32,000 bases of DNA. It comes from Promethearchaeota archaeon (GTDB taxonomy: Archaea > Asgardarchaeota > Lokiarchaeia > Sigyniarchaeales > SOKP01). The notes below the pieces were generated by a model that made no database searches, was not told the DNA's origin, and worked only from the letters and a program-made list of their open reading frames with translations. This document shows positions 1 through 13,578 of this stretch, piece after piece. The stretch lies in the NCBI GenBank assembly GCA_030606485.1, contig JAUWGH010000007.1:1-32000 (forward strand), in the 5' to 3' direction. The translations under genes and the position numbers were made by a program. Within the stretch, counting starts at the first letter, position 1. The number at the start of each line of letters is the position of its first letter.

Positions 1-410
<410 letters not shown>

Positions 411-536
411 TTATTATATCTTAATTTTATTTAAATCTTTTTAGAAAAATTTACCTCAAATTTTCTTGTTAAATCAAAAAAACTTTTTAAATTAATTTTA
501 AATAATAAGAAAATTTTAATGTAATATGAAGTATAT

Positions 537-674
537 GGGCCTGTAGATCAGTGGAAGATCATTGGGTTCGGCCTCGAACCCAAATTTATGCTTGACTTGC
601 ACGTCAACTTGATTGATTTTCATTCAAGAGATCAAGAGTTCAAGAGGTCACGGGTTCAATTCCCGTCAGGTCCA
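537..674 (+). tRNA. tRNA-Ala(UGC) with two introns (561-589 at position 25/26; 602-638 at 37/38)
   Basis: Removing both introns gives GGGCCTG TA GATC AGTGGAA GATC G CTTGA CT TGC AT TCAAG AGGTC ACGGG TTCAATT CCCGT CAGGTCC A, a complete cloverleaf. The 37/38 intron has a clean BHB (CTTG/CAAG helix, bulges CA|C and AG|T). A T-run follows the gene. Confidence 0.95.
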
Positions 675-1068
675 TTTTTCTTATTGAATTCATATTAAAT
701 AGACCTTTTATTTTTTTGATTATATTCTCTGCTCTAATCATACATTTTCTGCTTGAAAATCCTTTTGGAAACTCAATCCAAACAATATATTTTTCAACAT
801 TAATGTTTAAAGGAAGTATTATTGAATACAAATTATTTGTTTGAATTATCAATTTTTTAAATAAATATAATTGTTTGTAGTTAATAGAATAAAAAATATC
901 AAAAATTTTTTTAAAAGATGCAATTAATTTTTCTCCCATTTTTAGGTTTGAAAAAAAAATTAAACCTTCCTCTGTTCCTAAAATAATTTTAAGTTTAGTG
1001 CTTTGAGGGTTAAATAAATGTTCTAGAATTTTATGAATTTCATCATAATTTGTGATTTTATTATACAT
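640..1068 (-). CDS. Hypothetical protein, possibly a divergent Roadblock/profilin-like fold
   Basis: 142-aa ORF; the segment KIILGTEEGLIFFSN resembles the Roadblock beta-hairpin. The last 35 nt are antisense to tRNA-Ala. Confidence 0.5.
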   Translation of the reverse strand: MYNKITNYDEIHKILEHLFNPQSTKLKIILGTEEGLIFFSNLKMGEKLIASFKKIFDIFYSINYKQLYLFKKLIIQTNNLYSIILPLNINVEKYIVWIEFPKGFSSRKCMIRAENIIKKIKGLFNMNSIRKMDLTGIEPVTS

Positions 1069-1234
1069 TTTTTATTAAACCCCATTTTTCCAAATAAGAG
1101 TTGTTAGAAAAATGTTATTTTTCATTTTTATTAATTTAGAATAGAAATATATAAACTTCACTTAAAAAAATTTTAATAAAATCTAACATTAAAATTATAA
1201 AAATAATCAATTTTTTAGAATTTAGTAGTCTATT

Positions 1235-1354
1235 ATGTTAATTCAAGTTCCTGGGATCGATGGAAATACTTATGAATTCATTATAAATCTCATAGGTGTT
1301 ATTTTACTAATCTTTATTTTAATATATATTGCATTAACATCTCGTTCAGAATGA
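1235..1354 (+). CDS. Small single-pass membrane protein (39 aa), not in the ORF track
   Basis: Hand translation ATG(1235)..TGA(1354): MLIQVPGIDGNTYEFIINLIGVILLIFILIYIALTSRSE, with one clear hydrophobic helix. Confidence 0.5.
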   Translation: MLIQVPGIDGNTYEFIINLIGVILLIFILIYIALTSRSE

Positions 1355-1363
1355 ATATTCAAA

Positions 1364-2616
1364 TCATATTGCTGAAAAAATTTTTATCACATCATTATCT
1401 TTCAAAATATAATTCTCTCCTAATTTCATTTTCGATTTTACCTCCATCCCGTAAATGAAATGTTTTGCTAAGTCAGAATGGATTTTTTCTCTAATAAATT
1501 CCCGTATTTTTATTCCCTTTCTAACTAAAAAAACATCAGGGAGTATGTTTCCATCTTTATCTGTTAAAGTATTTAGATTTGCAACAGGATATACAGTAAT
1601 TTGGTTTAATATAGAAAATACTGCGTAATTTAATGTTTTTTGAACTCCTGTACCTCCAATTCCTTGTAATAATTTTTTCCTAATCTTTTCTAGGGTTTCC
1701 AATTCATTTTTTTTTAGATTATTTTTTTTTATTATATTAAAATCAGTATCACCAGGCATATATTTGATAATACCTTCCTTATTATATCTCCTAAGAATAA
1801 ATTCTGCTAAGGCACTGCATGGAATAATTTTCTTCTTATATTTTTTCTTTAATTCATCCAGTTTTTTTATACCAATATCTTTATCAATTTTATTCGCAAT
1901 TATTATTATCGGTTTAGAGATTTCTCTTAGATTTTTTGAAAAAATATTTAGTTCTGCTTTATCCCATTCAGATATTGACTTTCCATCTAAATTAGATTTT
2001 TCAATTGATTTTTCTATATCATCCTTTTTAATTGATAATCCAGATAATCTTTGATATAATGCTTCAATAAGCTCACTCCTCCCCTTAATAACTCTATTTG
2101 AAAATTTTTTCCAATCCTCTCTTTCAATAATTCCTTTAAACCATAAATTTATTTCATCTTCTAAAAACATTATATCTTCATATGGATCATGGGATCCTAA
2201 CTCTACTGTATTTCCATTCGCATCCAAAGATCCAGTAATATCTATAATATGTAATAGTACATCTGCTTGACTTAAATCACTCAAAAACCTATTCCCAAGC
2301 CCCTTCCCCTCATGAGCTCCTGGGACTAAACCAGCTACATCCAATAATTGAATAGGAATAAAACGAAATTGTTCTATACATTTTGAATTCTTAGGATTAT
2401 CCTTAACATTTAATTCTTTGCATACGCACAGCTTTTTAACATAACCTATTCCTTTATTAGGATCGATAGTTGTAAAGGGATAATCTCCAACTTTAGCATG
2501 AGTTAAACAAGCACTATTTAGGAATGTACTTTTACCGGAAGAAGGTTTAGGGTTAAATTAGAATATTTCTTAATATAACTTTTCTAATATAATTTCCCTA
2601 CCACACCGATTAGCAC
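1364..2616 (-). CDS. ychF: YchF/Obg-family P-loop NTPase, intron-containing; exons 2616-2594 and 2546-1364, 401 aa after splicing
   Basis: The frame of the 1364..2344 ORF stays open upstream to 2546. With exon 1 it reads MLIGVVGKPSSGKST (G1), YPFTTIDPN (G2), LLDVAGLVPGAHEGKGLGNRFLSDLSQAD (G3) and NKID (G4), with a TGS-like C-terminus. Spliced length is 1206 nt = 402 codons. GTG start at 2616. Confidence 0.93.
2547..2593 (-). other. 47-nt BHB-type intron in ychF mRNA
   Basis: Central helix AGGG(2599-2596)/CCCT(2552-2549), each followed by AAA. Inner 11-bp helix TTATATTAGAA/TTCTAATTTAA with one mismatch. AA|A cleavage at both bulges joins GGG AA + A CCT = G-K-P. The intron carries an in-frame TAG and is not a multiple of 3. 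Confidence 0.88.
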
Positions 2617-2641
2617 ATATTTTCACTTATAATTAAATTTG

Positions 2642-2647
2642 TTTATA
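2642..2647 (-). promoter_or_regulatory. Putative TATA box of ychF, implying a leaderless mRNA
   Basis: TATAAA on the minus strand 26-31 nt upstream of the GTG start. The AT-rich context lowers specificity. Confidence 0.4.
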
Positions 2648-2962
2648 TTTAATTTATTGAATTTTAGTTAAATTAAAAAAAATATAATTATTAAAGTCTA
2701 TTAAAAATATTTTCACAATAAATAATTTGAATATTTTTAATTAAGTTATAGTTTTATTTATCTTTTTAATAAGATTGTTTAATAATAACAGTCTAATGGA
2801 TTTATTAAAATTAATTTATTCTTTATAATTTAAATTTTTTTGACTATCATTATTTATATTTTTAAGACCATTTATCTTAATCTATCCAGTTCTTAGTAGA
2901 TAATGTTAATAAATTTCTTGAAATCGTTTTTTCTTCGGTTTAAAGAAATATTAGTAAAGAAA

Positions 2963-5737
2963 TTAAAAAATAGTATTTTCAGAGACTATTTTTTTATTAG
3001 TTAAATTATTTTCTTTTTTTGGGTCAATTAAATTTTCAATTAATTGCTTTAAAAGTTCAAAATCTTGTTCTTTTTTGAGAGAAAATTCAAAATTTTTAAA
3101 TGATATAAAATAGGATTTTATTTTTCTGTTTAATTTAATAAAAATCTTTTTTAGAATTTTATAATTTTTAAGTATTTCCTTTTGATTAACTGATAATTTG
3201 GAATAATAGTTCGTTCTTTTTTGAAAATAAAAACCTTTAAAAATCATTTTATTATTTTTAATCTCGTTAATTGATGCATTTAATATATTAAAAATATTTG
3301 TATCATCAATTTCTTTTGAGATTTCTGTTTCTTTAAAAATTAAAGATAATAATATATTCTCTTTAAATTCTCTATTCCATTTAGATGAAATTTGAAATAA
3401 TTGATTATAGATATTATATCCTTCTTGAACAAGAATCTTACTTTCAACATTGTCATAAAAAGAAGAAAAGATAATTGACTGAAGTTTATCTGATAATTCT
3501 AAATTTGAAATTTTTAAGAACCGAATAGGTCCTTTTGTAATGTCAAAAATTGATAATAATAATTTATAATTTGGAATTTTTTTTTTATCTGTTTCTCCTT
3601 TCATCTCAACGTTGATAAGTTCCTTTGAATCGATGTCCTCTATTAATTCTTTAAAATAATACTCATACGCATTCTGAAATTTTCTATTTTTACCATTAAA
3701 TTTTTTTCCTAAATTATTTAATTTTAAAAATACTCTTTTGGTATATTTTAAAAGGAGATTAGCATCCTCGGCAGAAATCTCTCCTGTAGAATCGCTTATT
3801 TCAACAATTTTACTGAGTTTCTTCAATTCTGAATATATAATAAAACTCTTTTTTAATTGATTTTTTTCAATATTCTCTAGAAAATCATTAATATTACTGA
3901 ATTTGTAATTTAGTCGACATGCTATTTGTTCTAAAAGTTCCTCAATGATATTTTTGCATTCAAGCCCACAATATTCAAAAGATTTACTCAAATAATATTT
4001 TTGAGCATTCTTGATTCGCTCTTTTAAATTTTTAATTGTTATTTTCTTTTTCTCATAAAATTTTTTCATAATATTTTTTTCAGCGTTATTTGGAAACTTA
4101 TCCTCCGTATCTTTTTTAAACTCAACTAAATTTTTATTATTCCCATTAAAGAGTTTCAAATCATCTTTTTTATTTTTTCCAAATGAATTTTTAAAATCTA
4201 TTAATTTGAATTTTAATCCTTGTTTTCTCGAATTATATACTTTTTTCAACGTTTTGATAGGCTTTTTCAGTAAAATTGAATTATAATTTTCTAGCTTTGG
4301 TTCTAATTTTCTTTTTTTTTCTGCCATAAAAGGAATTTGAAGAACAAATGGGTCTTTAATTGAATTTACTCTTACAATACATTGACCTTCATTCAAATAA
4401 GATAAATAATCATAATGATCTTTTGGTAATGACAATAATTCTCCTAATATTTCCTTTTCATAATAATTTTTAAAACTTACAATAATTCCCGAATTTGCTA
4501 AAATCTCTTCACTTATATCAGGTCTAGTCGCAATACATATAAGACATTCACCAGTTCCCCTTTGTAATAAGGCAATATCCTCTAAATATGTACTTAATTT
4601 ACTTTTTTTAACTATACTTTTTGGTACAAAATATTGTGCGTCTTCTATGATAGTAATGTGTTTAATCCCTTGATATCCGCCAGATTCTAAGTTATAATCC
4701 CATAAATATTTAAGTATAACGTTTAAAAAGAAGAATATGTCCTCTTTATCCCCCCCAAGACGAATAATCGAACTTAAATCTAAAATACAATCTCTTTGTA
4801 AAATCTCTTTTATAGAAATTGATGTATTATTTTCAAAAACTTTTTTTAAAGGTCCTTCAGAAAACCTTCGAATCCTGTTCTTTATACTTATAATAGTTTG
4901 TTTTAATTGGGGAATTTGATTTTCATATTTTAGTAAATATTTTTCACAAAAATTATGAAATCCTTTCCAATTTCTTGCATTTTCTTTATTACAAACATTT
5001 ATCATGATATCTATTAAAACTTTTTCCATTTGTGGTGTATATTCAACATTAGATCCGAGAAATTGAGAGCTTTTTAAGATCTCAAATATTCTTTCAGCAT
5101 GAATAGATGGATTTATAAATTCTGGATTGAAAATATTAATTGAAAAATTTTCTCCAGGAGATAAAAGTAAAATATTCTTTAACCTTTTACATAGAAACTT
5201 ATATTCTCCTTTAAATTCTACTAATAAAAAGGGAATATTTTCTCTTTTTTTAAAATTTATTAAAAAATTTTGTACAAAATTGCTTTTACCTGTTCCCGTA
5301 AATCCACAAATAAATACGTGTCTTTCTAAGTCTTTTTTTGTCAAATAAAAATTAAATTTTTTCCTCCTTTTCCTGACCAACCGCCCAATTTTTATTTTAC
5401 CTTTTTTTGAATCCTTTCTAGCAGGAATCGGTAAATCTATAATTTTACTATTAACTGGATAAAAAGATGATAAAATTAGTGATGTAAATGAAAGAATTAT
5501 ACCAATTAATATAAGAGAAATAAATATATTTAGCGGAATTGATTCAGATTTTATATTATTTTGAAATATAAAATAAAGAATTAAAAAGAATACATTGGCT
5601 GTATTAAGAATTATTATCGATTTCTTATGGTTGGGTATTTTAAATCCTTTTTTTCTTAAAAGGAAAAATAAAAAATTAATGAAAATTAGAAAAAAAAAAA
5701 AACCGTAATAAAGTAAATGCCAAAAAATATTAACCAT
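2963..5737 (-). CDS. Membrane-anchored HerA/FtsK-like (DUF87-type) ATPase with long C-terminal extension
   Basis: About three N-terminal TM helices; ERHVFICGFTGTGKS (Walker A), LLVEFKGEY, ITIIEDAQYF (Walker B), LCIATRP; about 450 additional C-terminal residues. Confidence 0.85.
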   Translation of the reverse strand: MVNIFWHLLYYGFFFFLIFINFLFFLLRKKGFKIPNHKKSIIILNTANVFFLILYFIFQNNIKSESIPLNIFISLILIGIILSFTSLILSSFYPVNSKIIDLPIPARKDSKKGKIKIGRLVRKRRKKFNFYLTKKDLERHVFICGFTGTGKSNFVQNFLINFKKRENIPFLLVEFKGEYKFLCKRLKNILLLSPGENFSINIFNPEFINPSIHAERIFEILKSSQFLGSNVEYTPQMEKVLIDIMINVCNKENARNWKGFHNFCEKYLLKYENQIPQLKQTIISIKNRIRRFSEGPLKKVFENNTSISIKEILQRDCILDLSSIIRLGGDKEDIFFFLNVILKYLWDYNLESGGYQGIKHITIIEDAQYFVPKSIVKKSKLSTYLEDIALLQRGTGECLICIATRPDISEEILANSGIIVSFKNYYEKEILGELLSLPKDHYDYLSYLNEGQCIVRVNSIKDPFVLQIPFMAEKKRKLEPKLENYNSILLKKPIKTLKKVYNSRKQGLKFKLIDFKNSFGKNKKDDLKLFNGNNKNLVEFKKDTEDKFPNNAEKNIMKKFYEKKKITIKNLKERIKNAQKYYLSKSFEYCGLECKNIIEELLEQIACRLNYKFSNINDFLENIEKNQLKKSFIIYSELKKLSKIVEISDSTGEISAEDANLLLKYTKRVFLKLNNLGKKFNGKNRKFQNAYEYYFKELIEDIDSKELINVEMKGETDKKKIPNYKLLLSIFDITKGPIRFLKISNLELSDKLQSIIFSSFYDNVESKILVQEGYNIYNQLFQISSKWNREFKENILLSLIFKETEISKEIDDTNIFNILNASINEIKNNKMIFKGFYFQKRTNYYSKLSVNQKEILKNYKILKKIFIKLNRKIKSYFISFKNFEFSLKKEQDFELLKQLIENLIDPKKENNLTNKKIVSENTIF

Positions 5738-6163
5738 TTCAAGAAAAAATTTGGATATTTCATTTAAATACTAAACCATAAATTCTAATATCTTTTAATT
5801 TAACCTTGCCTTAGAAAAACGATAATTTTCTATTTTTATTTCGTTTTTGAACTTTTACAACTGGATTACTAATCATTATAAATCTTTTTTTTTAAAAATA
5901 CCACTCCATTAATTAATAAAGATGCGTCAGAACTGATTCTTCTTTAAGACCAGTCTTAAAAGACTAAAGAATGACAAGTTAATCATAAATTAATCAAAAA
6001 TATTGATTAATTACCACTAAAACATTTTTATAACATTGCTTTTATAAAATTTTCTAAATAATCTTATTAACATTTTACAATCTTTAAAAAAAGGAAATAT
6101 TTTTATGACATAGAGTTCTATAAATATAAAATATCAAAATTAATACTTTTAAAGGGAAAAAAA

Positions 6164-7795
6164 ATGGTACAATTCTCAGGAGTTCCAGTAATCGTTTTGA
6201 AAGAAGGTACTGAAAGAAGACAGGGAAGAAATGCACAGAAGAATAATATAGCTGCTTCTATAGCTGTTGCAGAAGCAATAAGAACGACATTAGGTCCAAA
6301 AGGAATGGATAAAATGTTAGTTGATTCTTTAGGAGATGTAACAATCACTAATGATGGGGCTACAATACTCGATGAAATAGATGTACAGCATCCAGCAGCT
6401 AAGATGATGATAGAAATTGCAAAAACTCAAGATAAAAGAGTCGGAGATGGAACAACAACAAGTGTAATAATTGGAGGATCACTTTTAAAATCAGCACAAG
6501 AATTGATTGATCAATCCGTTCATCCAACAATTATTTTGAGAGGATATAGAAAAGCTCTTATAAAAAGTAAAGATATATTAAAAAAAATTGCTGATAAAGT
6601 AGATAGTTCCGATAAAAAAATATTAAAACAAGCTGCAATAACAGCGATGAATAGTAAATCAATAGTGGGAGTGAGAGAGCATTTTGCAGAAATCGCTGTG
6701 AAATCTATACTCCAAATTGTTGATCTTAGAGGAGATTTAAAAATAATTGATATAGATCAAATTCAAATAATTAAAAAAGAAGGGGGAAGTCTGTCAGATA
6801 CTGAATTAATCAATGGATTAATTATAGATAAAGAAATAGTACATCCAATGATGCCTAAGAGCTTGAAAAATGTAAAAATAGCTTTAATCGATACTCCTTT
6901 AGAAATTGAAAAGACTGAGTTCGATGCTGAAATTAAAATTCAATCACCAGATCAAATAACACGTTTTCTTGAGGAAGAAGAAAATATGCTAAAAAGAAAA
7001 GTATCTGCAATTATTAATTCAGGAGCAAAAGTAATCTTTTGTCAAAAAGGAATTGATGATAAAGCTCAGAGTCTTTTGGCAAGAGAAAATATAATCGCAA
7101 TTAGAAGAGTAAAACGTTCAGATATGGAAAAATTATCAAGAGCTACAAAAGCTAAGATTATAACCAATCTTGTTGAACTTACCCCCGAAGATCTTGGAGC
7201 ATCTGGATTAGTTGATGAAAAAAAAGTCGGTACTGACAACATGATTTTTGTTTCAGAATGTTCAGATCCAAAAGCTGTAAGCATCTTGATTCGAGGTGGT
7301 ATTGCACATGTTGTGGATGAAGCAGAAAGAACTTTAAATGATGCTTTATGCGTTGTGAGAAATATAGTTGATAATCCATATATTCTAGGAGGTGGCGGAT
7401 CTTCGGAAATAGAATTATCAAAACAATTAAGAGATTTTGCCACAACTATCGGTGGTCGAGAGCAATTAGCAATAGAAGCATATGCTTATTCTTTAGAGGT
7501 TGTCCCAACTACTTTAGCAGAAAATGCAGGACTTGATCCAGTTGATTTATTAGTTGAATTAAAGGCGAAACATGATAGCCCTGATGGTAAAGCAATAGGC
7601 GTAAATATTCAAACTGGAAAACCGAGCAATATGATCGAAGAAGGTGTAATTGAGCCTTTAGTGGTTTTAATGCAAGCTATCCAATCTGCGACAGAAGTTT
7701 CATCGATGATATTAAAAATAGATGATGTAATAGCTGCCTCAGGTGGAATGAAAGCAGGAGCTGGTGGTCCACAAATGCCCCCGGATATGGATTAA
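6164..7795 (+). CDS. ths: Thermosome (group II chaperonin) subunit
   Basis: [50 protein letters not shown]. Alpha versus beta subunit not determined. Confidence 0.98.
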
Positions 7796-7855
7796 ATATT
7801 TTTTTTTAATTTTTTTTAATTTTTTTATAAAAAATTTCTCAATTTCTTTTTACAA

Positions 7856-8311
7856 ATGAATAAAATCAAACTCTTTGCATTACATTTTAATGAATGCGAC
7901 CCCGTAAAATGTACTTCACTAAAACTAAAAAAATTCGGTTTAGTAACAATCTCTAATATAGTAATTAATAAAATGAAAAACTCTATTCTTTTAGACCCCT
8001 TTGCAGAAAGAATTTTATCAGAAAAAGATATTATGTTGGTGATTAAGTATGGAATTACAGTAATTGATTGCTCCTGGAAAAATATTTTAAATATTACAAC
8101 TTTAAAATTTAAAAATAAAAGAAAATTACCCCCACTAATCGCAACAAATCCAGTAAATTATGGTAAATGGGAGAAATTAAGTTCGGTTGAAGCATTAGCC
8201 GCAGCTTTGTATATTATAGGGTTTAAGCCATTCGCAAAATTACTTCTCTCGAAATTTTCTTGGGGAACTGAATTTTTAAAATTAAATTTCGAAGGCTTAA
8301 CTAAAAATTAA
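7856..8311 (+). CDS. tsr3: 16S/18S rRNA aminocarboxypropyltransferase Tsr3 (DUF367)
   Basis: HFNECDPVKCTSLKL, IDCSW, RKLPPLIATNPVNYGK, LSSVEALAAAL, FSWG motifs. Confidence 0.95.
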   Translation: MNKIKLFALHFNECDPVKCTSLKLKKFGLVTISNIVINKMKNSILLDPFAERILSEKDIMLVIKYGITVIDCSWKNILNITTLKFKNKRKLPPLIATNPVNYGKWEKLSSVEALAAALYIIGFKPFAKLLLSKFSWGTEFLKLNFEGLTKN

Positions 8312-8313
8312 GT

Positions 8314-9315
8314 TTATTCGAATTTTGAGCTTGTAATGATATTTATAGAATTTATTAATTGTTCTGTGATATCATTAGTTCCAATTATTTCTAATATCGA
8401 AAATATTATATTTCGTGCTTCCCCCATTACTGGAATTCCACCAAATGTTAAAGGAAATAAAGCAACAAAAGAAACATTTTGTATATTTGATTCTTTTGTA
8501 ATTTCATCAGAAAACTGTAATTTTCCAGAATGACATGCTAAAATTCCATAAAAGGATTCAGAATTTTGCCCAGAAATACATATATATGATAAGAGTCTTC
8601 CCAAAGCAATATCTTGAGCTTCCTCTAACATTTTTTGGAAACCAACATTTGCATTTGCTGAGAAGGCTTCTATTGTTAAGGGTAAAGATTGGTCAGATAC
8701 ATCTCTTGCATCTAAAGTTAAACCAGAAAGATTAACCAAACTATATCTAGAAAAAACCGGATTTTTAATTGAATCTAAAATCTTTCCTATTGCTTGTAGC
8801 TTCTCTAAGTTCTTGTAATTATCACTATTATATGAAGTAAAAGAAATTTCTGTTCCCATTGAAAATAAATAAATTGCACTGCGAACTTTATTAGAGAATT
8901 CTTCTAAATCCTTTTCTGAATTGGGAAATCCACCAAAAAAATTACCAATTTCTCTTTTTAAGTGATATGTACTGCTTGCAAGATTATCAGGATCTAAGGG
9001 CCATTCGCCTTTATAGTTATGCACTATAGTTAATAATGTTTGATTTATTCTAATTGTAATTATACAAACTTTTTCAAAAAAAGAAAAGGAAATTATCTGG
9101 TCTTTAATTCCTAAATCATTCCAATTTTCTTCACTTGCAGAAAAAGCTATTGAAGCAAGGCCAGTAATTATATTAGCATCAAAATTAAGGTCACTTTTTC
9201 TGCCTATGTGAGCGATTGATAATCCATTTTCATCACACAATATTACCATCAAAGTTTCTTTTGAAGATCTTAAAATAGCTGTTAAATATTTAATTAACGA
9301 CTCTCTAATACTCAT
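8314..9315 (-). CDS. Tandem Roadblock/LC7-like domain protein
   Basis: Two similar units, VILCDENGLSIAHI...IITGLASIAFSASEENWNDL and YSLVNLSGLTLDA...AFSANANVGFQKMLEE, matching the Roadblock helix-strand pattern. Confidence 0.7.
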   Translation of the reverse strand: MSIRESLIKYLTAILRSSKETLMVILCDENGLSIAHIGRKSDLNFDANIITGLASIAFSASEENWNDLGIKDQIISFSFFEKVCIITIRINQTLLTIVHNYKGEWPLDPDNLASSTYHLKREIGNFFGGFPNSEKDLEEFSNKVRSAIYLFSMGTEISFTSYNSDNYKNLEKLQAIGKILDSIKNPVFSRYSLVNLSGLTLDARDVSDQSLPLTIEAFSANANVGFQKMLEEAQDIALGRLLSYICISGQNSESFYGILACHSGKLQFSDEITKESNIQNVSFVALFPLTFGGIPVMGEARNIIFSILEIIGTNDITEQLINSINIITSSKFE

Positions 9316-9462
9316 TTATATAACCATATAAACTATTTCTCTGTTTTTTTAATTCTTGTGGATTATTTTGTTAAAATTATATTGATTTTTATAAAATTTA
9401 AAGTTATTTTAATTTCAATAATGCTGTTAGATAAATTTTTGTATATACATCTTTTCTTAATT

Positions 9463-9564
9463 TGCAGGGAGGGGGATTTGAACCCCCGTACTCCTATGAG
9501 AGTGAATCCTAAGTCCACCGCCTTTAATCAACACTATTTTTTGACCAGGCTTGGCGATCCCTGC
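9463..9564 (-). tRNA. tRNA-Leu(UAG) with a 17-nt D-loop intron (9524-9540)
   Basis: GCAGGGA/TCCCTGC acceptor stem, GTGGA CT TAG GA TTCAC anticodon arm, long variable arm, TTCAAAT T-loop. Intron BHB: GGTC/GATT helix with AA|A bulges. Confidence 0.95.
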
Positions 9565-9740
9565 ATTTTTCAAATTATAATTATAATCCTATGATATTAT
9601 ATAGAAAATAATTTTTTCATTAAAATATTAATATTATGATAATTTTTGATTTGTTTTTTTTATTTTAAGAAAAAACCTCATAAATAAATTTTAATTTCAT
9701 TATTAATATTTTTCTATAAATTAATTAAAAAAAATTTTTT

Positions 9741-9834
9741 GCTCTCGTAGTGTAGCTCGGCCAAACTTTAAAACTGAGGCTAAGCATGCTAGGCTTTCAC
9801 CCTGGTGACCCGGGTTCGAATCCCGGCGAGAGCA
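9741..9834 (+). tRNA. tRNA-Glu(UUC) with a 19-nt D-loop intron (9765-9783)
   Basis: GCTCTCG/CGAGAGC acceptor stem, CTAGG CT TTC AC CCTGG anticodon arm, TTCGAAT T-loop. Relaxed BHB: GGCC/GGCT helix, bulges AA|A and AA|G. Confidence 0.95.
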
Positions 9835-10027
9835 TAAAAATATTATTCTTTAATCCTTATTATTTAAAAAAATCGAAAATTATTGCAGCTTTTGGTTACT
9901 TACAAATGTTAGTGATATAATTTTGATTTTATCAAAGAACAATGAAGATTCTTTATTTAAAGTTATAATTAAATTTAAAAATTATTTTCTATCATTGAAT
10001 TTTATAACCAAATCTCTCTCTCTTTTT

Positions 10028-10919
10028 GGGTGGATGCAAAATTCAGTGATGATTGGAATTTTAACTTAAACTTTAGATAAAAATTTAATAAATTCCTTAA
10101 ATTCATTACAGTATGAGTAAAAACAACATTAAAGAACATTGGAATTTAATAGCATTAGAATATCAGAAGAAAAGAAAGTTATCATTTGATGATATTGAAT
10201 ACGCTCCAGGTTATGCAAGGGAGTCTGAACTTAATCTGCTTGGGGATGTTGAAGAAAAAAGAATTGTAGAATTAGGATGTGGAGCCGCTGAAAACTCTAT
10301 TACTTTAGCAAAGAAAGGAGGTATTTGTACAGGAGTTGATATATCTTTAGAACAATTGAAATATGCTAAAAATTTAATAATAGAAAATAAAGTTAAAATT
10401 GAGTTAATAGAAGGTGATATAGAGAATTTAATAATGATCGATGATGATATATTTGATATAGCAATATCTACTTTCGCATTAGATTGGATGCAAGATTTGA
10501 ATGCGGCATTTAAGGAAGCTTATAGAATTTTAAAACCGAATGGTATTTTCGTGTTTAGTATGCAACACCCGATTTACAACCTTCTTGGTGCAGAGGATCT
10601 TGATCTTAAGGAGCTTAAAATATCGGTAAGCTATTTTGAAAAAGAAGTGACATTTGTAGAGTCTACAGGAATAGATCTTAGAGTTCACGCATCAAAAATT
10701 AGTGATATCATCAATGGATTAATCAGGATTGGCTTCAATATAGAAAACATACTTGAGCCTAAACCATTGGAAAGAGATGTCATCCCTCACGAGGAATGGT
10801 ATCAAGAAATAATAGAAATGATTCCTTCAACCTTAATTTGTAAGGTATTAAAAGTTCCAAAATAGAGTAAAAAATAATTTCTTAATTGATATATCCATCA
10901 CTGAATTTTGTTACCACCC
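10028..10919. mobile_element. Non-autonomous 892-bp transposon-like cassette with a passenger methyltransferase
   Basis: TIRs GGGTGGATGCAAAATTCAGTGATG (10028-10051) and, reverse-complemented, GGGTGGTAACAAAATTCAGTGATG (10896-10919), 21/24 identical. Direct repeat CTCTTTTT at 10020-10027 and 10920-10927. No transposase inside. Confidence 0.85.
10113..10865 (+). CDS. Class I SAM-dependent methyltransferase
   Basis: IVELGCGAAEN (motif I), TGVDIS, IEGDIENL, FDIAISTFALDW, RILKPNGIFVFS. Confidence 0.93.
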   Translation: MSKNNIKEHWNLIALEYQKKRKLSFDDIEYAPGYARESELNLLGDVEEKRIVELGCGAAENSITLAKKGGICTGVDISLEQLKYAKNLIIENKVKIELIEGDIENLIMIDDDIFDIAISTFALDWMQDLNAAFKEAYRILKPNGIFVFSMQHPIYNLLGAEDLDLKELKISVSYFEKEVTFVESTGIDLRVHASKISDIINGLIRIGFNIENILEPKPLERDVIPHEEWYQEIIEMIPSTLICKVLKVPK

Positions 10920-11013
10920 CTCTTTTTTCATTTAAATAGTTTCAATTTATAATTTTTTTAATTCAAGTTATTCAATAAAATAAAATTTGTAAAAATTGAC
11001 ATATTGATGTAAA

Positions 11014-13482
11014 ATGAGTGAAATTAGCGGAAATATATTTAGAGATACTAAAAGTGATAAAAAATGTGAAAAGAAATCAGATACTTCGAAAGAAGTTAGT
11101 GATAACTATGTTTCATATGAGGAATTTATGAAAACCGTTAAAAAAACGAGAATTTTGCCGTATTCTTATAAAAAGTTTCCACATTTTGATGAAAGATCTC
11201 CAGAACAACTAATAGAAGATATAGAAGCAGGTAAAAAGAAAGTTAAGATTGAAACTGAGCAGACTTTTGATATACACTCTGGTGTTCTTAATGTAGATAA
11301 GGCTGAAGAAAGTAACAAACACGTTTCTTATGAGGATTTTTTAAGAAGGGTTAAAAAAACCACAATAACACCTCTCTCTACAGAGAGTTTGCCAAATTTT
11401 GAAATGAAACTACAAGAACAAATCATTATAGATGGTATTGGTGTTAAAAAGAAAGTTAAAGGCGATAATAAAAATCTATTAGTATTTAAATCTAAAAATG
11501 ATTCAGAAAAAATTGATAAGACCTCAGAAAAAGTAGAAAATAAAACAAAAAAAGAGCCTATTAAAAATAGTGATGTAAAAGTAAAAGAGGAAAAATCAAA
11601 AGTTGAAGAGGAGAAGAGAAAAGAGACTTCAAAATCTTCAGAAGAAATTTTGGAAGAAAAGAAAAAATCCAAAGATATTAACCGAGAACGAAAAGAACAA
11701 AAAAAAGTTAAGGAAAAGGAAAGTAAGAAAAGTGAAGAAATAAAGGAAAAAAAATCAAAAAATATAGATACAAAAAATAAGCGAGATATTTCAAGCGAAA
11801 AAAAGAAAATTAGTGAACCCAAGAAAGAGAAGGAGAAAGAGATTGAGAAAAAGAAAGTGACGAAGGAACATTTAGAAAAGCACAAAGAAATTAAAGATAT
11901 TACAAATAAAATTAATGATTTAGAAAAACGACGAAACAACAATAACAATTTAATTGATCATAGTAAAAAGAAATCACAAGAGGGAATTTTTAACGGAATT
12001 ATAACGCGTGAAGGATACGAAAAAAAATTCAGAGAATTAACAAAAGAAAACGCACAAATTGAGAAACAATTAAGAGAATTTAACGATAATTCTTCACACT
12101 CTGAAAGATTAAACAATGAAAAATTAAGAGTGAAAAAAGGAGAGGTATTAGAAAAGAAAATTACTGAGCTGAAACAAAAACAAAAAAACGAAGAATTGAA
12201 AGAACAAGAGCAAATTTCAAAGGAAAAGGCTAAAGAATTAAAAAACCTACTTTCTAACCAAGAGAAACAAGAGCAAAAAAAGCAAGAATTGAATGGAAGC
12301 GAAAACATATCAAATAAAGATAACTCGGATTTTAAAAAGGTAAAAAATAATGAAAAAATAGAGAATAAGATGACTTCGGAAACGATTGAAAAAAGGAGAG
12401 ATGTAAATATAAAGCAAGAGGAAAACAAGAAAGAAACCCTTACAGATAAGGTTTCAAATGAATTTTTAGAACCAAAGAAAGAATTTGAACAGTCTTATGG
12501 ATATATTTATAAAGCAACAAACACAGTAAATGGAAAAGTATATATTGGACAAACTACAAGAAAAAAATTGGAAAAAAGATGGAAAGAACACATAAAAGAG
12601 GCTAAAGATAAGAGTTATAGTTCTACACATTTGCAAAATAGTATTAGAAAATATGGGGAAAAGGCATTTTCTATTAAAAAAATTGATACTGCAAATAATC
12701 AAAAAGAATTAGATGGGAAAGAAAAGGATTGGATTAAGAAATATAATTCAATGAATCCCAAAAAAGGTTATAATATGAGAGATGGTGGAGAAGGCGGAAA
12801 ATTACGACCAGAAGTAAAAGAAAAAATAAAAAAATCTATGGAAGAGAAGTGGAAAGACCCAGAACATCAACGAAAAGTAAGTAAAGCAGTGAGTAAAGCA
12901 ATGAAAAAGAAGTGGAAACACCCAGAACATCGAGAAAAAGTAATCAACGGAGTGAGTAAAGGAATGAAAAAGAAGTGGAAAGATAAAAAATATCAAAAAG
13001 ATCAGAGAAAAGTAAGAGAATCTCCCGAATTTAAAGAAAAACATAGTATGTCAATGGTAAATAAGTGGAAAGATCCAGAACATCGAGAAAATGTGAGTAA
13101 AGGGGTGGAAAAGAGGTGGAAAGATAAAGAATATCAAAAAAAGCAGAAAAAAGTAAGAGAATCTCCCGAATTTAAAGAAAAGATGCGTAAAGCATCGAAA
13201 AAAAGGTGGAAAGATAAAGAAATATCTAATATGAAAGATTTTCTAACTGATATAAAAAATTTGATCCTAAAGAAGGATTTAGAAAAAAAATATAACATCA
13301 CTGGTCCAACAATAAATAGTAAAATAAAAGATATATTAGGTCCAAATGGCCCAAAAAATTATAGAGAAGCAAAACAATTTCTTAAAGATAGAGATATTGA
13401 TAACATTTTAAAGATTTTAAAAACAAAAAAAAATAAAAAGCAAAATAAAAAAAAGCGCCCCAGACATGGATCGAACATGTGA
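11014..13482 (+). CDS. Large GIY-YIG endonuclease-domain protein with K/E-rich N-terminus and helical C-terminal repeats
   Basis: YGYIYKATNTVNGKVYIGQTT...RWKEH...LQNSIRKYG...E...KGYNMRDGGEGG, followed by repeated KWKDPEHREK/KWKDKEYQ units reminiscent of NUMOD3-type DNA-binding repeats. Confidence 0.88.
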   Translation: MSEISGNIFRDTKSDKKCEKKSDTSKEVSDNYVSYEEFMKTVKKTRILPYSYKKFPHFDERSPEQLIEDIEAGKKKVKIETEQTFDIHSGVLNVDKAEESNKHVSYEDFLRRVKKTTITPLSTESLPNFEMKLQEQIIIDGIGVKKKVKGDNKNLLVFKSKNDSEKIDKTSEKVENKTKKEPIKNSDVKVKEEKSKVEEEKRKETSKSSEEILEEKKKSKDINRERKEQKKVKEKESKKSEEIKEKKSKNIDTKNKRDISSEKKKISEPKKEKEKEIEKKKVTKEHLEKHKEIKDITNKINDLEKRRNNNNNLIDHSKKKSQEGIFNGIITREGYEKKFRELTKENAQIEKQLREFNDNSSHSERLNNEKLRVKKGEVLEKKITELKQKQKNEELKEQEQISKEKAKELKNLLSNQEKQEQKKQELNGSENISNKDNSDFKKVKNNEKIENKMTSETIEKRRDVNIKQEENKKETLTDKVSNEFLEPKKEFEQSYGYIYKATNTVNGKVYIGQTTRKKLEKRWKEHIKEAKDKSYSSTHLQNSIRKYGEKAFSIKKIDTANNQKELDGKEKDWIKKYNSMNPKKGYNMRDGGEGGKLRPEVKEKIKKSMEEKWKDPEHQRKVSKAVSKAMKKKWKHPEHREKVINGVSKGMKKKWKDKKYQKDQRKVRESPEFKEKHSMSMVNKWKDPEHRENVSKGVEKRWKDKEYQKKQKKVRESPEFKEKMRKASKKRWKDKEISNMKDFLTDIKNLILKKDLEKKYNITGPTINSKIKDILGPNGPKNYREAKQFLKDRDIDNILKILKTKKNKKQNKKKRPRHGSNM
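12847..13220 (+). repeat. Coding tandem repeats in the GIY-YIG protein C-terminus
   Basis: Several copies of (A/G)GTGGAAAGA(T/C). The stretch AAAGTAAGAGAATCTCCCGAATTTAAAGAAAA (KVRESPEFKEK) is duplicated. Confidence 0.85.
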
Positions 13483-13578
13483 CCGCTCGGTGTCTTTACA
13501 ATCTATTTGATTGTTTAACAGCCGAGTGCTTTTAGCACACCATTTTTAACGGTGCCTACCAAACTGAGCTACTGAGGC
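13456..13578 (-). tRNA. tRNA-Asn(GUU) with two introns (13531-13555 at 22/23; 13492-13515 at 37/38)
   Basis: Spliced sequence GCCTCAG TA GCTC AGTTTGGTA GAGC A CTCGG CT GTT AA CCGAG CGGTC ACATG TTCGATC CATGT CTGGGGC G. Both inserts form hairpins with BHB-like junctions. A T-run follows the gene. Confidence 0.95.

Follow-up and report, generated by a model that had tools for sequence, protein, structure and literature searches.

The analyzed window is a stretch of 32,000 nucleotides (contig JAUWGH010000007.1, referred to below as C6; window C6:1-32000) from the genome assembly GCA_030606485.1 of a Promethearchaeota archaeon. The genome comprises 3.75 Mb in 13 contigs and has a GC content of 29%. 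Proteins encoded in the window show 92–99% identity to those from metagenome-assembled genomes of Promethearchaeota/Promethearchaeia and 58% identity to those of Promethearchaeum syntrophicum MK-D1. One protein-coding gene of the window, encoding a GTPase, and four tRNA genes contain short inserts that are regarded here as putative archaeal bulge-helix-bulge (BHB) introns: one in the GTPase gene and six in the tRNA genes.

Interrupted genes of the window

The interrupted protein-coding gene encodes a YGR210-like GTPase of the Obg family (Pfam PF08438, 6.8e-32; PF01926, i.e., MMR_HSR1; TGS) and not a canonical (classical) YchF, the name given to it in the initial annotation. The gene is present in a single copy in the genome. 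Its parts are listed below; H denotes the 4-bp helix of the BHB motif, and a caret marks the predicted cut.

2594..2616, minus strand: GTPase exon 1, with the GTG start at 2616, encoding MLIGVVG and the first two bases of Lys8
2547..2593, minus strand: putative GTPase BHB intron of 47 nt within the Walker-A (P-loop) codons, with an in-frame TAG and a length that is not a multiple of 3
1364..2546, minus strand: GTPase exon 2, which starts with A-CCT-TCT-TCC-GGT-AAA-AGT, i.e., (K)PSSGKS, and runs to the stop codon

The H helix of the GTPase insert is formed by AGGG (2599-2596) and CCCT (2552-2549), and the bulges are AA^A (2595-2593) and AA^A (2548-2546). The insert thus has the 4-bp helix and the two 3-nt bulges on opposite strands, each located 3' of a helix strand, that define a BHB motif. 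In the inner stem (h'), 8/9 bp are paired. The probability of finding 4/4 and at least 8/9 pairs at a site fixed by homology is, by our own estimate with an assumed pairing chance of ~0.4, of the order of 1e-4. A cut after the second nucleotide of each bulge restores the sequence GVVGK^PSSGKST, which has the same form as in contiguous orthologues. The first Gly of the Walker-A loop is encoded by exon 1, and without intron removal the gene would yield an 11-residue peptide at most. No start codons are located between the stop codon of the insert and the P-loop, and the first start codon of exon 2 lies 67 codons downstream.

All five genomes of the genus, namely the window genome and four relatives (three with 92–99% and one with 72% protein identity), carry the insert at one and the same position. 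Among 100 family genomes searched, only these five showed the short open frame (397 aa). In other genera of the family, 22 of the 25 loci read are contiguous, with the motif M..IGI[IV]GK^PSSGK unbroken, and the motif regular expression failed at the remaining three; the gene is also contiguous in MK-D1 and in all other Promethearchaeota found. The H helix does not vary among the five intron-bearing sequences. In the inner stem, two pairs are changed on both sides (compensatory changes), and in the 72% relative a pair takes the place of one mismatch. In the five genomes, 90.8% of the helix cells are paired, compared with 25–52% when the partner was slid. The dN/dS values among the intron-bearing genes are 0.11–0.23 (dS up to 1.6), and the value of 0.13 between interrupted and uninterrupted genes indicates equally strong purifying selection; no second frame break was found across 392 codons. 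The shared site throughout the genus, the preservation of the helices by compensatory pairs and the purifying selection on the gene imply that the insert is very probably removed from the RNA.

As for the tRNA genes, the standard programs gave misleading results. ARAGORN found a single gene in the window and named it wrongly. ARAGORN (with and without -i) and Rfam together mis-assigned the window tRNAs, with tRNA-Glu called Ala or Ser and tRNA-Ala called Lys. Of the four genes, Rfam detected only tRNA-Ala, mistaking the hairpin of its first intron for the anticodon arm. Because of these misreadings, our own cloverleaf-plus-BHB solver was written, in which candidate BHB introns are removed and the remaining cloverleaf is scored; the ARAGORN and Rfam output served as seeds only. 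The solver found four tRNA genes with six introns:

537-674, plus strand: tRNA-Ala(UGC) with G3:U70 and two introns (Rfam tRNA, 46.3 bits; solver score 70.5)
561-589, plus strand: predicted non-canonical tRNA-Ala intron, 29 nt, position 25/26; H AAGA/ATTT (3/4), bulges TC^A and AT^G, 10-bp inner stem
602-638, plus strand: predicted canonical tRNA-Ala intron, 37 nt, position 37/38; H CTTG/CAAG (4/4), bulges CA^C and AG^T, outer helix formed by the 5-bp anticodon stem
9463-9564, minus strand: tRNA-Leu(UAG), class II (solver; only weak T-arm matches in Rfam)
9524-9540, minus strand: predicted tRNA-Leu D-loop intron, 17 nt, position 21/22; H GGTC/GATT, bulges AA^A and AA^A, outer and inner helices of 2 bp each
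9741-9834, plus strand: tRNA-Glu(UUC) (solver score 66)
9765-9783, plus strand: predicted tRNA-Glu D-loop intron, 19 nt, position 21/22; H GGCC/GGCT (4/4), bulges AA^A and AA^G, zero flanking helices in strict register
13456-13578, minus strand: tRNA-Asn(GUU) with two introns (solver score 69.5)
13531-13555, minus strand: predicted tRNA-Asn D-arm intron, 25 nt, position 22/23; H TGGT/GCTA (two G:U), bulges AG^G and AA^A
13492-13515, minus strand: predicted canonical tRNA-Asn intron, 24 nt, position 37/38; H CTGT/AAAG (3/4), bulges TA^A and AC^A, outer helix formed by the anticodon stem, 6-bp inner stem

All seven inserts, six in tRNA genes and one in the mRNA, were thus found where the initial annotation had placed them, with identical junctions. 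The non-canonical introns have an H helix of 4/4 (Leu, Glu, Asn) or 3/4 pairs (Ala) and 3-nt bulges, and their removal restores the cloverleaf. The relaxed D-arm motifs noted in that annotation were also seen: the flanking helices of the Leu, Glu and Asn D-arm introns measure 0–2 bp and are weak in Glu and Asn. The mature tRNA-Ala as predicted differs very little from Ala(CGC), a tRNA of this genome whose gene has no intron, and after intron removal the D-arms of tRNA-Leu, tRNA-Glu and tRNA-Asn match those of intron-free paralogues in the genome, e.g., Leu(CAG). A motif-free search for single deletions, in which the BHB was ignored, likewise placed the extra sequence in the D-arm.

The tRNA-Ala gene follows the 3' end of a 16S rRNA gene (1..408, plus strand; Rfam RF01959, 379.5 bits, model positions 1071-1478). 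It is followed by a minus-strand open reading frame (ORF) at 640-1068, and no 23S rRNA gene is present in this part of the window (1-1070); the rRNA genes appear to be unlinked at this end.

Interruptions elsewhere in the genome and the splicing enzymes

The initial annotation expected more spliced coding genes in the genome. BHB inserts were checked in four more coding genes, and in each of them removal of the predicted intron restores a conserved motif, so that at the level of sequence this expectation is borne out:

C7:23173-23202: GH38, 30 nt; H CGTG/CACG, bulges AA^A and AT^T, 8-bp inner stem; restores HWDRE^WY
C2 ~142590-142621: dnaG, 32 nt; H GGGC/GCCT, bulges AA^A and AA^A, 4-bp stem (GATA/TATC); restores GAIFGQ^TEGLL
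C12 ~126030, minus strand: B12-binding mutase subunit, 32 nt; H GCAT/ATGC, bulges AG^A and TC^A, 10-bp stem; restores KPGIDGHWRGG
C1 ~489540, minus strand: uppS copy 2, 30 nt; H ACGG/ACGT (3/4), bulges AA^A and TA^A, 7-bp stem; restores ILDGNRRWA

All five coding-gene introns are located within highly conserved motifs (P-loop, HWDREW, GAIFGQ/TEGLL, DxHxxG and DGNRRW), and the 5' bulge is AA^A in 4/5 of them. Both the location and the AA^A bias may reflect ascertainment, as conserved motifs expose breaks, or a real preference for such sites. A homology-free scan for BHB motifs with an H helix of 4/4, an inner stem of at least 5 bp and fusion of two open frames gave no excess over the mirror control at any filter setting (e.g., 328 vs 338 loci) and missed the GTPase and dnaG introns. 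Since chance frame-fusing folds equal the mirror control, such a scan cannot count mRNA introns. According to BLASTN searches, the GTPase intron has no further copies in the genome and no sequence similarity to any tRNA intron of it; hence there is no evidence for a repeated mobile element or for an origin from a tRNA intron.

As for the splicing enzymes, the genome contains exactly two EndA paralogues (two PF01974 genes, at C10:66737-67336 and C10:670249-670869) and an intact RtcB gene (C6:118950-120257). The alpha subunit is most similar to the Aeropyrum pernix alpha subunit (3p1z_B, 3e-37), with the loop aligned gap-free. In its crenarchaeal specificity loop (CSL), NKPR is aligned to EKPR, so that the equivalents of Lys44 and Arg46 are kept, and the catalytic Tyr, His and Lys are retained. 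The beta subunit has Pro at the position of the catalytic His. The genome is therefore predicted from sequence to encode an (alpha-beta)2 EndA with a CSL/L1 loop, in agreement with the permissive, non-strict enzyme proposed in the initial annotation. In the A. pernix enzyme, Lys44 is needed for activity and for the cutting of D-loop and relaxed motifs, Arg46 is likewise a loop residue, and the crenarchaeal loop confers cleavage of D-loop introns (PMC3241643). Asgard archaea were previously found to have (alpha-beta)2 EndA with the L1 loop (Kaneta 2018, PMC5829648). The predicted enzyme resembles that of A. pernix (PDB 3p1z) in having two subunit genes, catalysis in alpha only and the equivalents of Lys44 and Arg46 in the loop, whereas the Promethearchaeota enzyme is a prediction from sequence.

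A genome-wide census based on Rfam, ARAGORN, our own solver and manual reading gave 45 curated tRNA genes; the counts are approximate, and some boundaries are ambiguous. Eleven genes are intron-free, nine have an intron at 37/38 only, and ~25 have at least one predicted intron elsewhere, which is located in the D-arm in 18/25 cases. In total, ~38 introns in 45 genes correspond to 0.84 per gene, and 76% of the genes are interrupted. The statement that every tRNA has a non-canonical intron is thus correct inside the window and does not hold genome-wide, where about half of the genes (~25/45) carry one. The non-canonical positions are as follows:

21/22 (D-arm): Leu UAG, UAA and GAG; Glu UUC and CUC; Gln UUG
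25/26 (D-arm): Ala UGC; three Pro genes
22/23 (D-arm): Asn; elongator-type Met(CAU) at C7:37222-37359
Other sites: 59/60 in Lys CUU and Ile UAU; 52/53 in Arg UCG; 32/33 in Thr CGU; 28/29 in Gly GCC; 34/35 in Ile GAU

The same H helix is found at the same 21/22 site in Leu(UAA) and Leu(GAG) as in Leu(UAG), and in Gln(UUG) the H helix and bulges equal those of the Glu(UUC) intron, again at 21/22. According to our own calculation, the presence of non-canonical introns in 4/4 window genes has a hypergeometric p of ~0.085, so these genes do not form a significant cluster; the window samples a heavily interrupted genome, with at least five interrupted coding genes as well, and is no hot spot. In 31/34 tRNA introns the 3' bulge begins with A. 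The A-rich bulges that had been taken as a style shared by the D-arm and mRNA introns are therefore present as described, and they are a general property of the genome with no specific tie between the two groups.

Neither Rfam and ARAGORN nor the T-arm+acceptor and D-arm+acceptor scans, which gained only Ile(UAU), detected genes for Arg(GCG) and Arg(CCG); heavier interruption, splitting or absence from the assembly may be the reason. Several other tRNA genes have unusual features. In tRNA-Gln(UUG) (C2:249915-250012, minus strand), the anticodon loop is CCTTGAA, with C at position 33, where U is near-universal. The tRNA-Ile(UAU) gene (C2:186808-186965, plus strand) has predicted introns at 37/38 (53 nt) and 59/60 (30 nt), and its T-loop, ATCGAAG, is unusual. 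As the searches recovered only two CAU tRNAs, AUA may be decoded by the UAU tRNA and not by a modified CAU one. A tRNA-Sec(UCA)-like gene (C2:189902-190018, minus strand) has a 24-nt canonical intron. A class II tRNA gene (Leu-like; CAA expected) at C6:64031-64195, minus strand, carries an 81-nt insert in the anticodon region, which may comprise two introns. In tRNA-Val(UAC) (C6:166016-166115, plus strand), the variable loop apparently has 6 nt (AGGTTC), and the central helix of the D-arm insert is 3/4.

Predicted splicing and alternative explanations

The six tRNA inserts and the mRNA insert, i.e., all seven inserts of the window, are very probably archaeal BHB introns, and we infer that the GTPase mRNA and the tRNA precursors would be spliced by cleavage and ligation. 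Each precursor would form a 4-bp helix with a 3-nt bulge on either side; cuts after the second nucleotide of each bulge would be made by the heterotetrameric (alpha-beta)2 EndA, and RtcB would ligate the exons. In the tRNAs, the D-arm and the anticodon loop would be restored. In the GTPase mRNA, codon 8 (AA^A, Lys) would be joined to Pro9, and the Walker-A loop G-K-P-S-S-G-K-S-T would be rebuilt.

Several observations speak against this interpretation. The exon-exon helix (h) of the GTPase motif has zero pairs in strict register; if the 3' bulge is counted as 2 nt, h has 3 bp (GGU/ACC). The motif is accordingly of a relaxed HBh' type. The minimum-energy fold pairs the third base of the 3' bulge, giving a 2-nt bulge, and the folding energy of the motif is the same as that of shuffled sequence (z = -0.02). 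In the shuffle control for covariation, which involves five sequences only, 65/500 shuffles reach the observed score. In the tRNA genes, the Glu and Asn D-arm motifs consist of the 4-bp helix alone, and elsewhere in the genome Pro(CGG), Trp and Val(UAC) fit only with non-standard bulges. Genome-wide, BHB-like folds number 225,636 in the true geometry and 224,228 in the mirror-geometry control. By themselves, such folds arise frequently by chance in a genome this rich in AT; the evidence lies in their coincidence with the exact restoration of conserved sequence.

The GTPase gene could also be a pseudogene, or its 47 nt an artefact of assembly or insertion, with nothing being spliced. The in-frame stop and the frame shift of the insert agree with this explanation, and all the genomes are metagenome assemblies, but it is extremely unlikely given that five species-level genomes, each assembled independently, share the insert and its position, that dN/dS is 0.11–0.23 over 392 codons with no other lesion at saturating dS, and that the gene is the only copy and keeps its BHB helices with compensatory changes. 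If the insert were retained and a downstream start used, an N-terminally truncated product would result, and not the protein beginning at MLIGVVGKPSSGK. An ORF does begin at TTG 2344; this codon, however, lies 67 codons inside exon 2, and a protein started there would lack the G1 motif. The preceding stretch of 67 codons without a start is open and conserved (PSSGKSTFLN..., 72–99% identical), exon 1 (IGVVGK) is conserved upstream of the insert, and such a truncation is highly improbable. The comparative, selection, copy-number and start-codon evidence together strongly disfavours a pseudogene, an artefact and a truncated product. A further explanation would be a ribosome hop over the 47 nt, as in phage T4 gene 60, from a take-off AAA to a second, landing AAA; identical AAA triplets do flank the gap, which holds a stop codon and a hairpin. 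Bypassing in T4 gene 60 depends on a stop codon that immediately follows the take-off codon and on a long signal in the nascent peptide, whereas in the GTPase gene TTA follows the take-off codon and only 8 residues are made before the gap. In the four other interrupted genes the BHB geometry is the same but the codons do not match (CAA vs TAA in dnaG, GAA vs GAT in GH38), the repeated AAA is explained by the two AA^A bulges, and the probability of bypassing is next to negligible.

For the tRNA genes, it is very unlikely that the D-arm inserts are retained expansions or that the loci are tRNA pseudogenes. The relaxed motifs (Glu without flanking helices, the Asn H helix with two G:U) would fit retention, and a preprint on Asgard archaea reports some D-arm inserts without a canonical motif (10.64898/2026.10.13.758758). 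Against this, the window genes are the only ones found for these anticodons, and their exons are near-identical between genera while the inserts vary in sequence, length and position. Moreover, H helices of 4/4 or 3/4 and 3-nt bulges are located exactly where removal restores the D-arm, and the encoded EndA is of the type shown to cut D-loop introns (PMC3241643).

Intron turnover and comparison with known systems

The tRNA-Ala(UGC) gene adjoins the GTPase gene and is syntenic across the family (L061-L089, 100 family genomes), with nearly invariant exons. Its intron positions are 25/26 and 37/38 in the window's genus, where the 25/26 intron is shared by the relatives L061-L063 with a changed stem. 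No intron is present in G010, a member of another genus, and in further genera the positions are 32/33, 24/25, 25/26, 22/23 with 32/33, or 25/26 with 32/33. The Leu(UAG) intron at 21/22 occurs in this genus, including G008, and in G062, with differing sequence and length, while G010 has a 32/33 intron in its place. Asn(GUU) is intron-free in G010 and has one intron in G034, a more distant member of the same genus, in which the D-arm intron is absent; the close relatives G008 and G019 show full-length matches (91–99% identity) spanning both introns. This distribution supports recent lineage-specific intron gains, including that of the GTPase intron, with the direction of change based on parsimony only. 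The suggested ongoing proliferation of introns with spread into mRNA agrees with the data as far as turnover is concerned (five Ala positions or none, a genus-restricted GTPase intron). The step of spread from tRNA to mRNA remains conjectural, because no sequence similarity links the mRNA intron to the tRNA introns.

A BHB intron in the cbf5 pre-mRNA of Crenarchaeota was reportedly described by Watanabe in 2002. This intron is the published archaeal case in a coding gene (Yokobori 2009, PMC2738675). The GTPase intron resembles it as a short tRNA-type intron of a coding gene that breaks the frame unless removed, was gained in one clade and is accompanied by a heteromeric EndA. It differs in the host gene (a YGR210-like GTPase), in the host (an Asgard archaeon of Promethearchaeia), in belonging to a set of at least five coding genes that are interrupted in one genome, and in that splicing is deduced from sequence. 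The cbf5 gene of the window genome is uninterrupted (TruB_N at C6:91866-92207, a single 326-aa open frame with no internal stop).

Non-canonical and multiple tRNA introns of Thermoproteales were reportedly described by Sugahara in 2008. Such introns have also been reported in Asgard archaea (Valentin-Alvarado 2024, PMC11291895; 10.64898/2026.10.13.758758). The introns of the window genome are similar to both in lying outside 37/38, often in the D-arm, with two per gene possible and with relaxed motifs; standard finders likewise miss or mis-call the genes, and gains recur at differing positions in orthologues. The share of interrupted tRNA genes (76%) is far below that of Atabeyarchaeia and Freyarchaeia (92–95%), and the density of 0.84 introns per gene is close to the median of 0.86 that the preprint gives for non-focal Asgard families (10.64898/2026.10.13.758758). 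No sign of single-intron copies spreading was seen here. Asgard tRNA introns, D-arm introns missed by finders and the EndA type are already published (PMC11291895, PMC5829648, 10.64898/2026.10.13.758758), and the tRNA data of this work mainly extend the picture drawn in the preprint for other Asgard classes to a Lokiarchaeial family. The tRNA-Ala(UGC) orthologues provide a compact natural series for the dating of intron gains.

Outside archaea, the closest likeness is to HAC1/XBP1, in which Ire1 cuts an mRNA intron at stem-loops and a tRNA-ligase type enzyme (RtcB in animals) joins the exons, a spliceosome-free and stress-regulated process. In both systems an mRNA intron is removed, in the archaeon by prediction, through an endonuclease and an enzyme of the tRNA-ligase type. 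The nuclease here would be EndA in place of Ire1, and the stress regulation is that of the eukaryotic process. It is conceivable, yet rather improbable, that EndA and RtcB are a routine part of mRNA maturation in this Lokiarchaeial genus, with micro-introns interrupting motifs for catalysis or binding in several housekeeping genes, and that the output of GTPase, DnaG, UppS, GH38 and B12-mutase is gated by splicing capacity as a counterpart of HAC1/XBP1. Under this proposal, the same enzymes working in reverse would insert the introns at sites where a GC-rich 4-mer is followed by AA^A.

To our knowledge, archaeal protein-coding genes are treated as uninterrupted, cbf5 of Crenarchaeota aside, and gene callers assume so. 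A literature search found no paper on BHB introns in Asgard protein-coding genes, the sole published case being crenarchaeal cbf5. In the genome studied here, a single-copy GTPase gene and at least four other genes appear to be readable only after removal of a tRNA-type intron, and the host is a member of the archaeal group most closely related to eukaryotes. Should this reading be correct, Asgard annotations would systematically truncate or split such genes, and EndA and RtcB would have mRNA substrates in these cells. The gain of coding introns would also be datable on a shallow tree, with the GTPase intron confined to one genus and the Asn D-arm intron to part of it, and through such datable gains the route of BHB-intron insertion would become testable.

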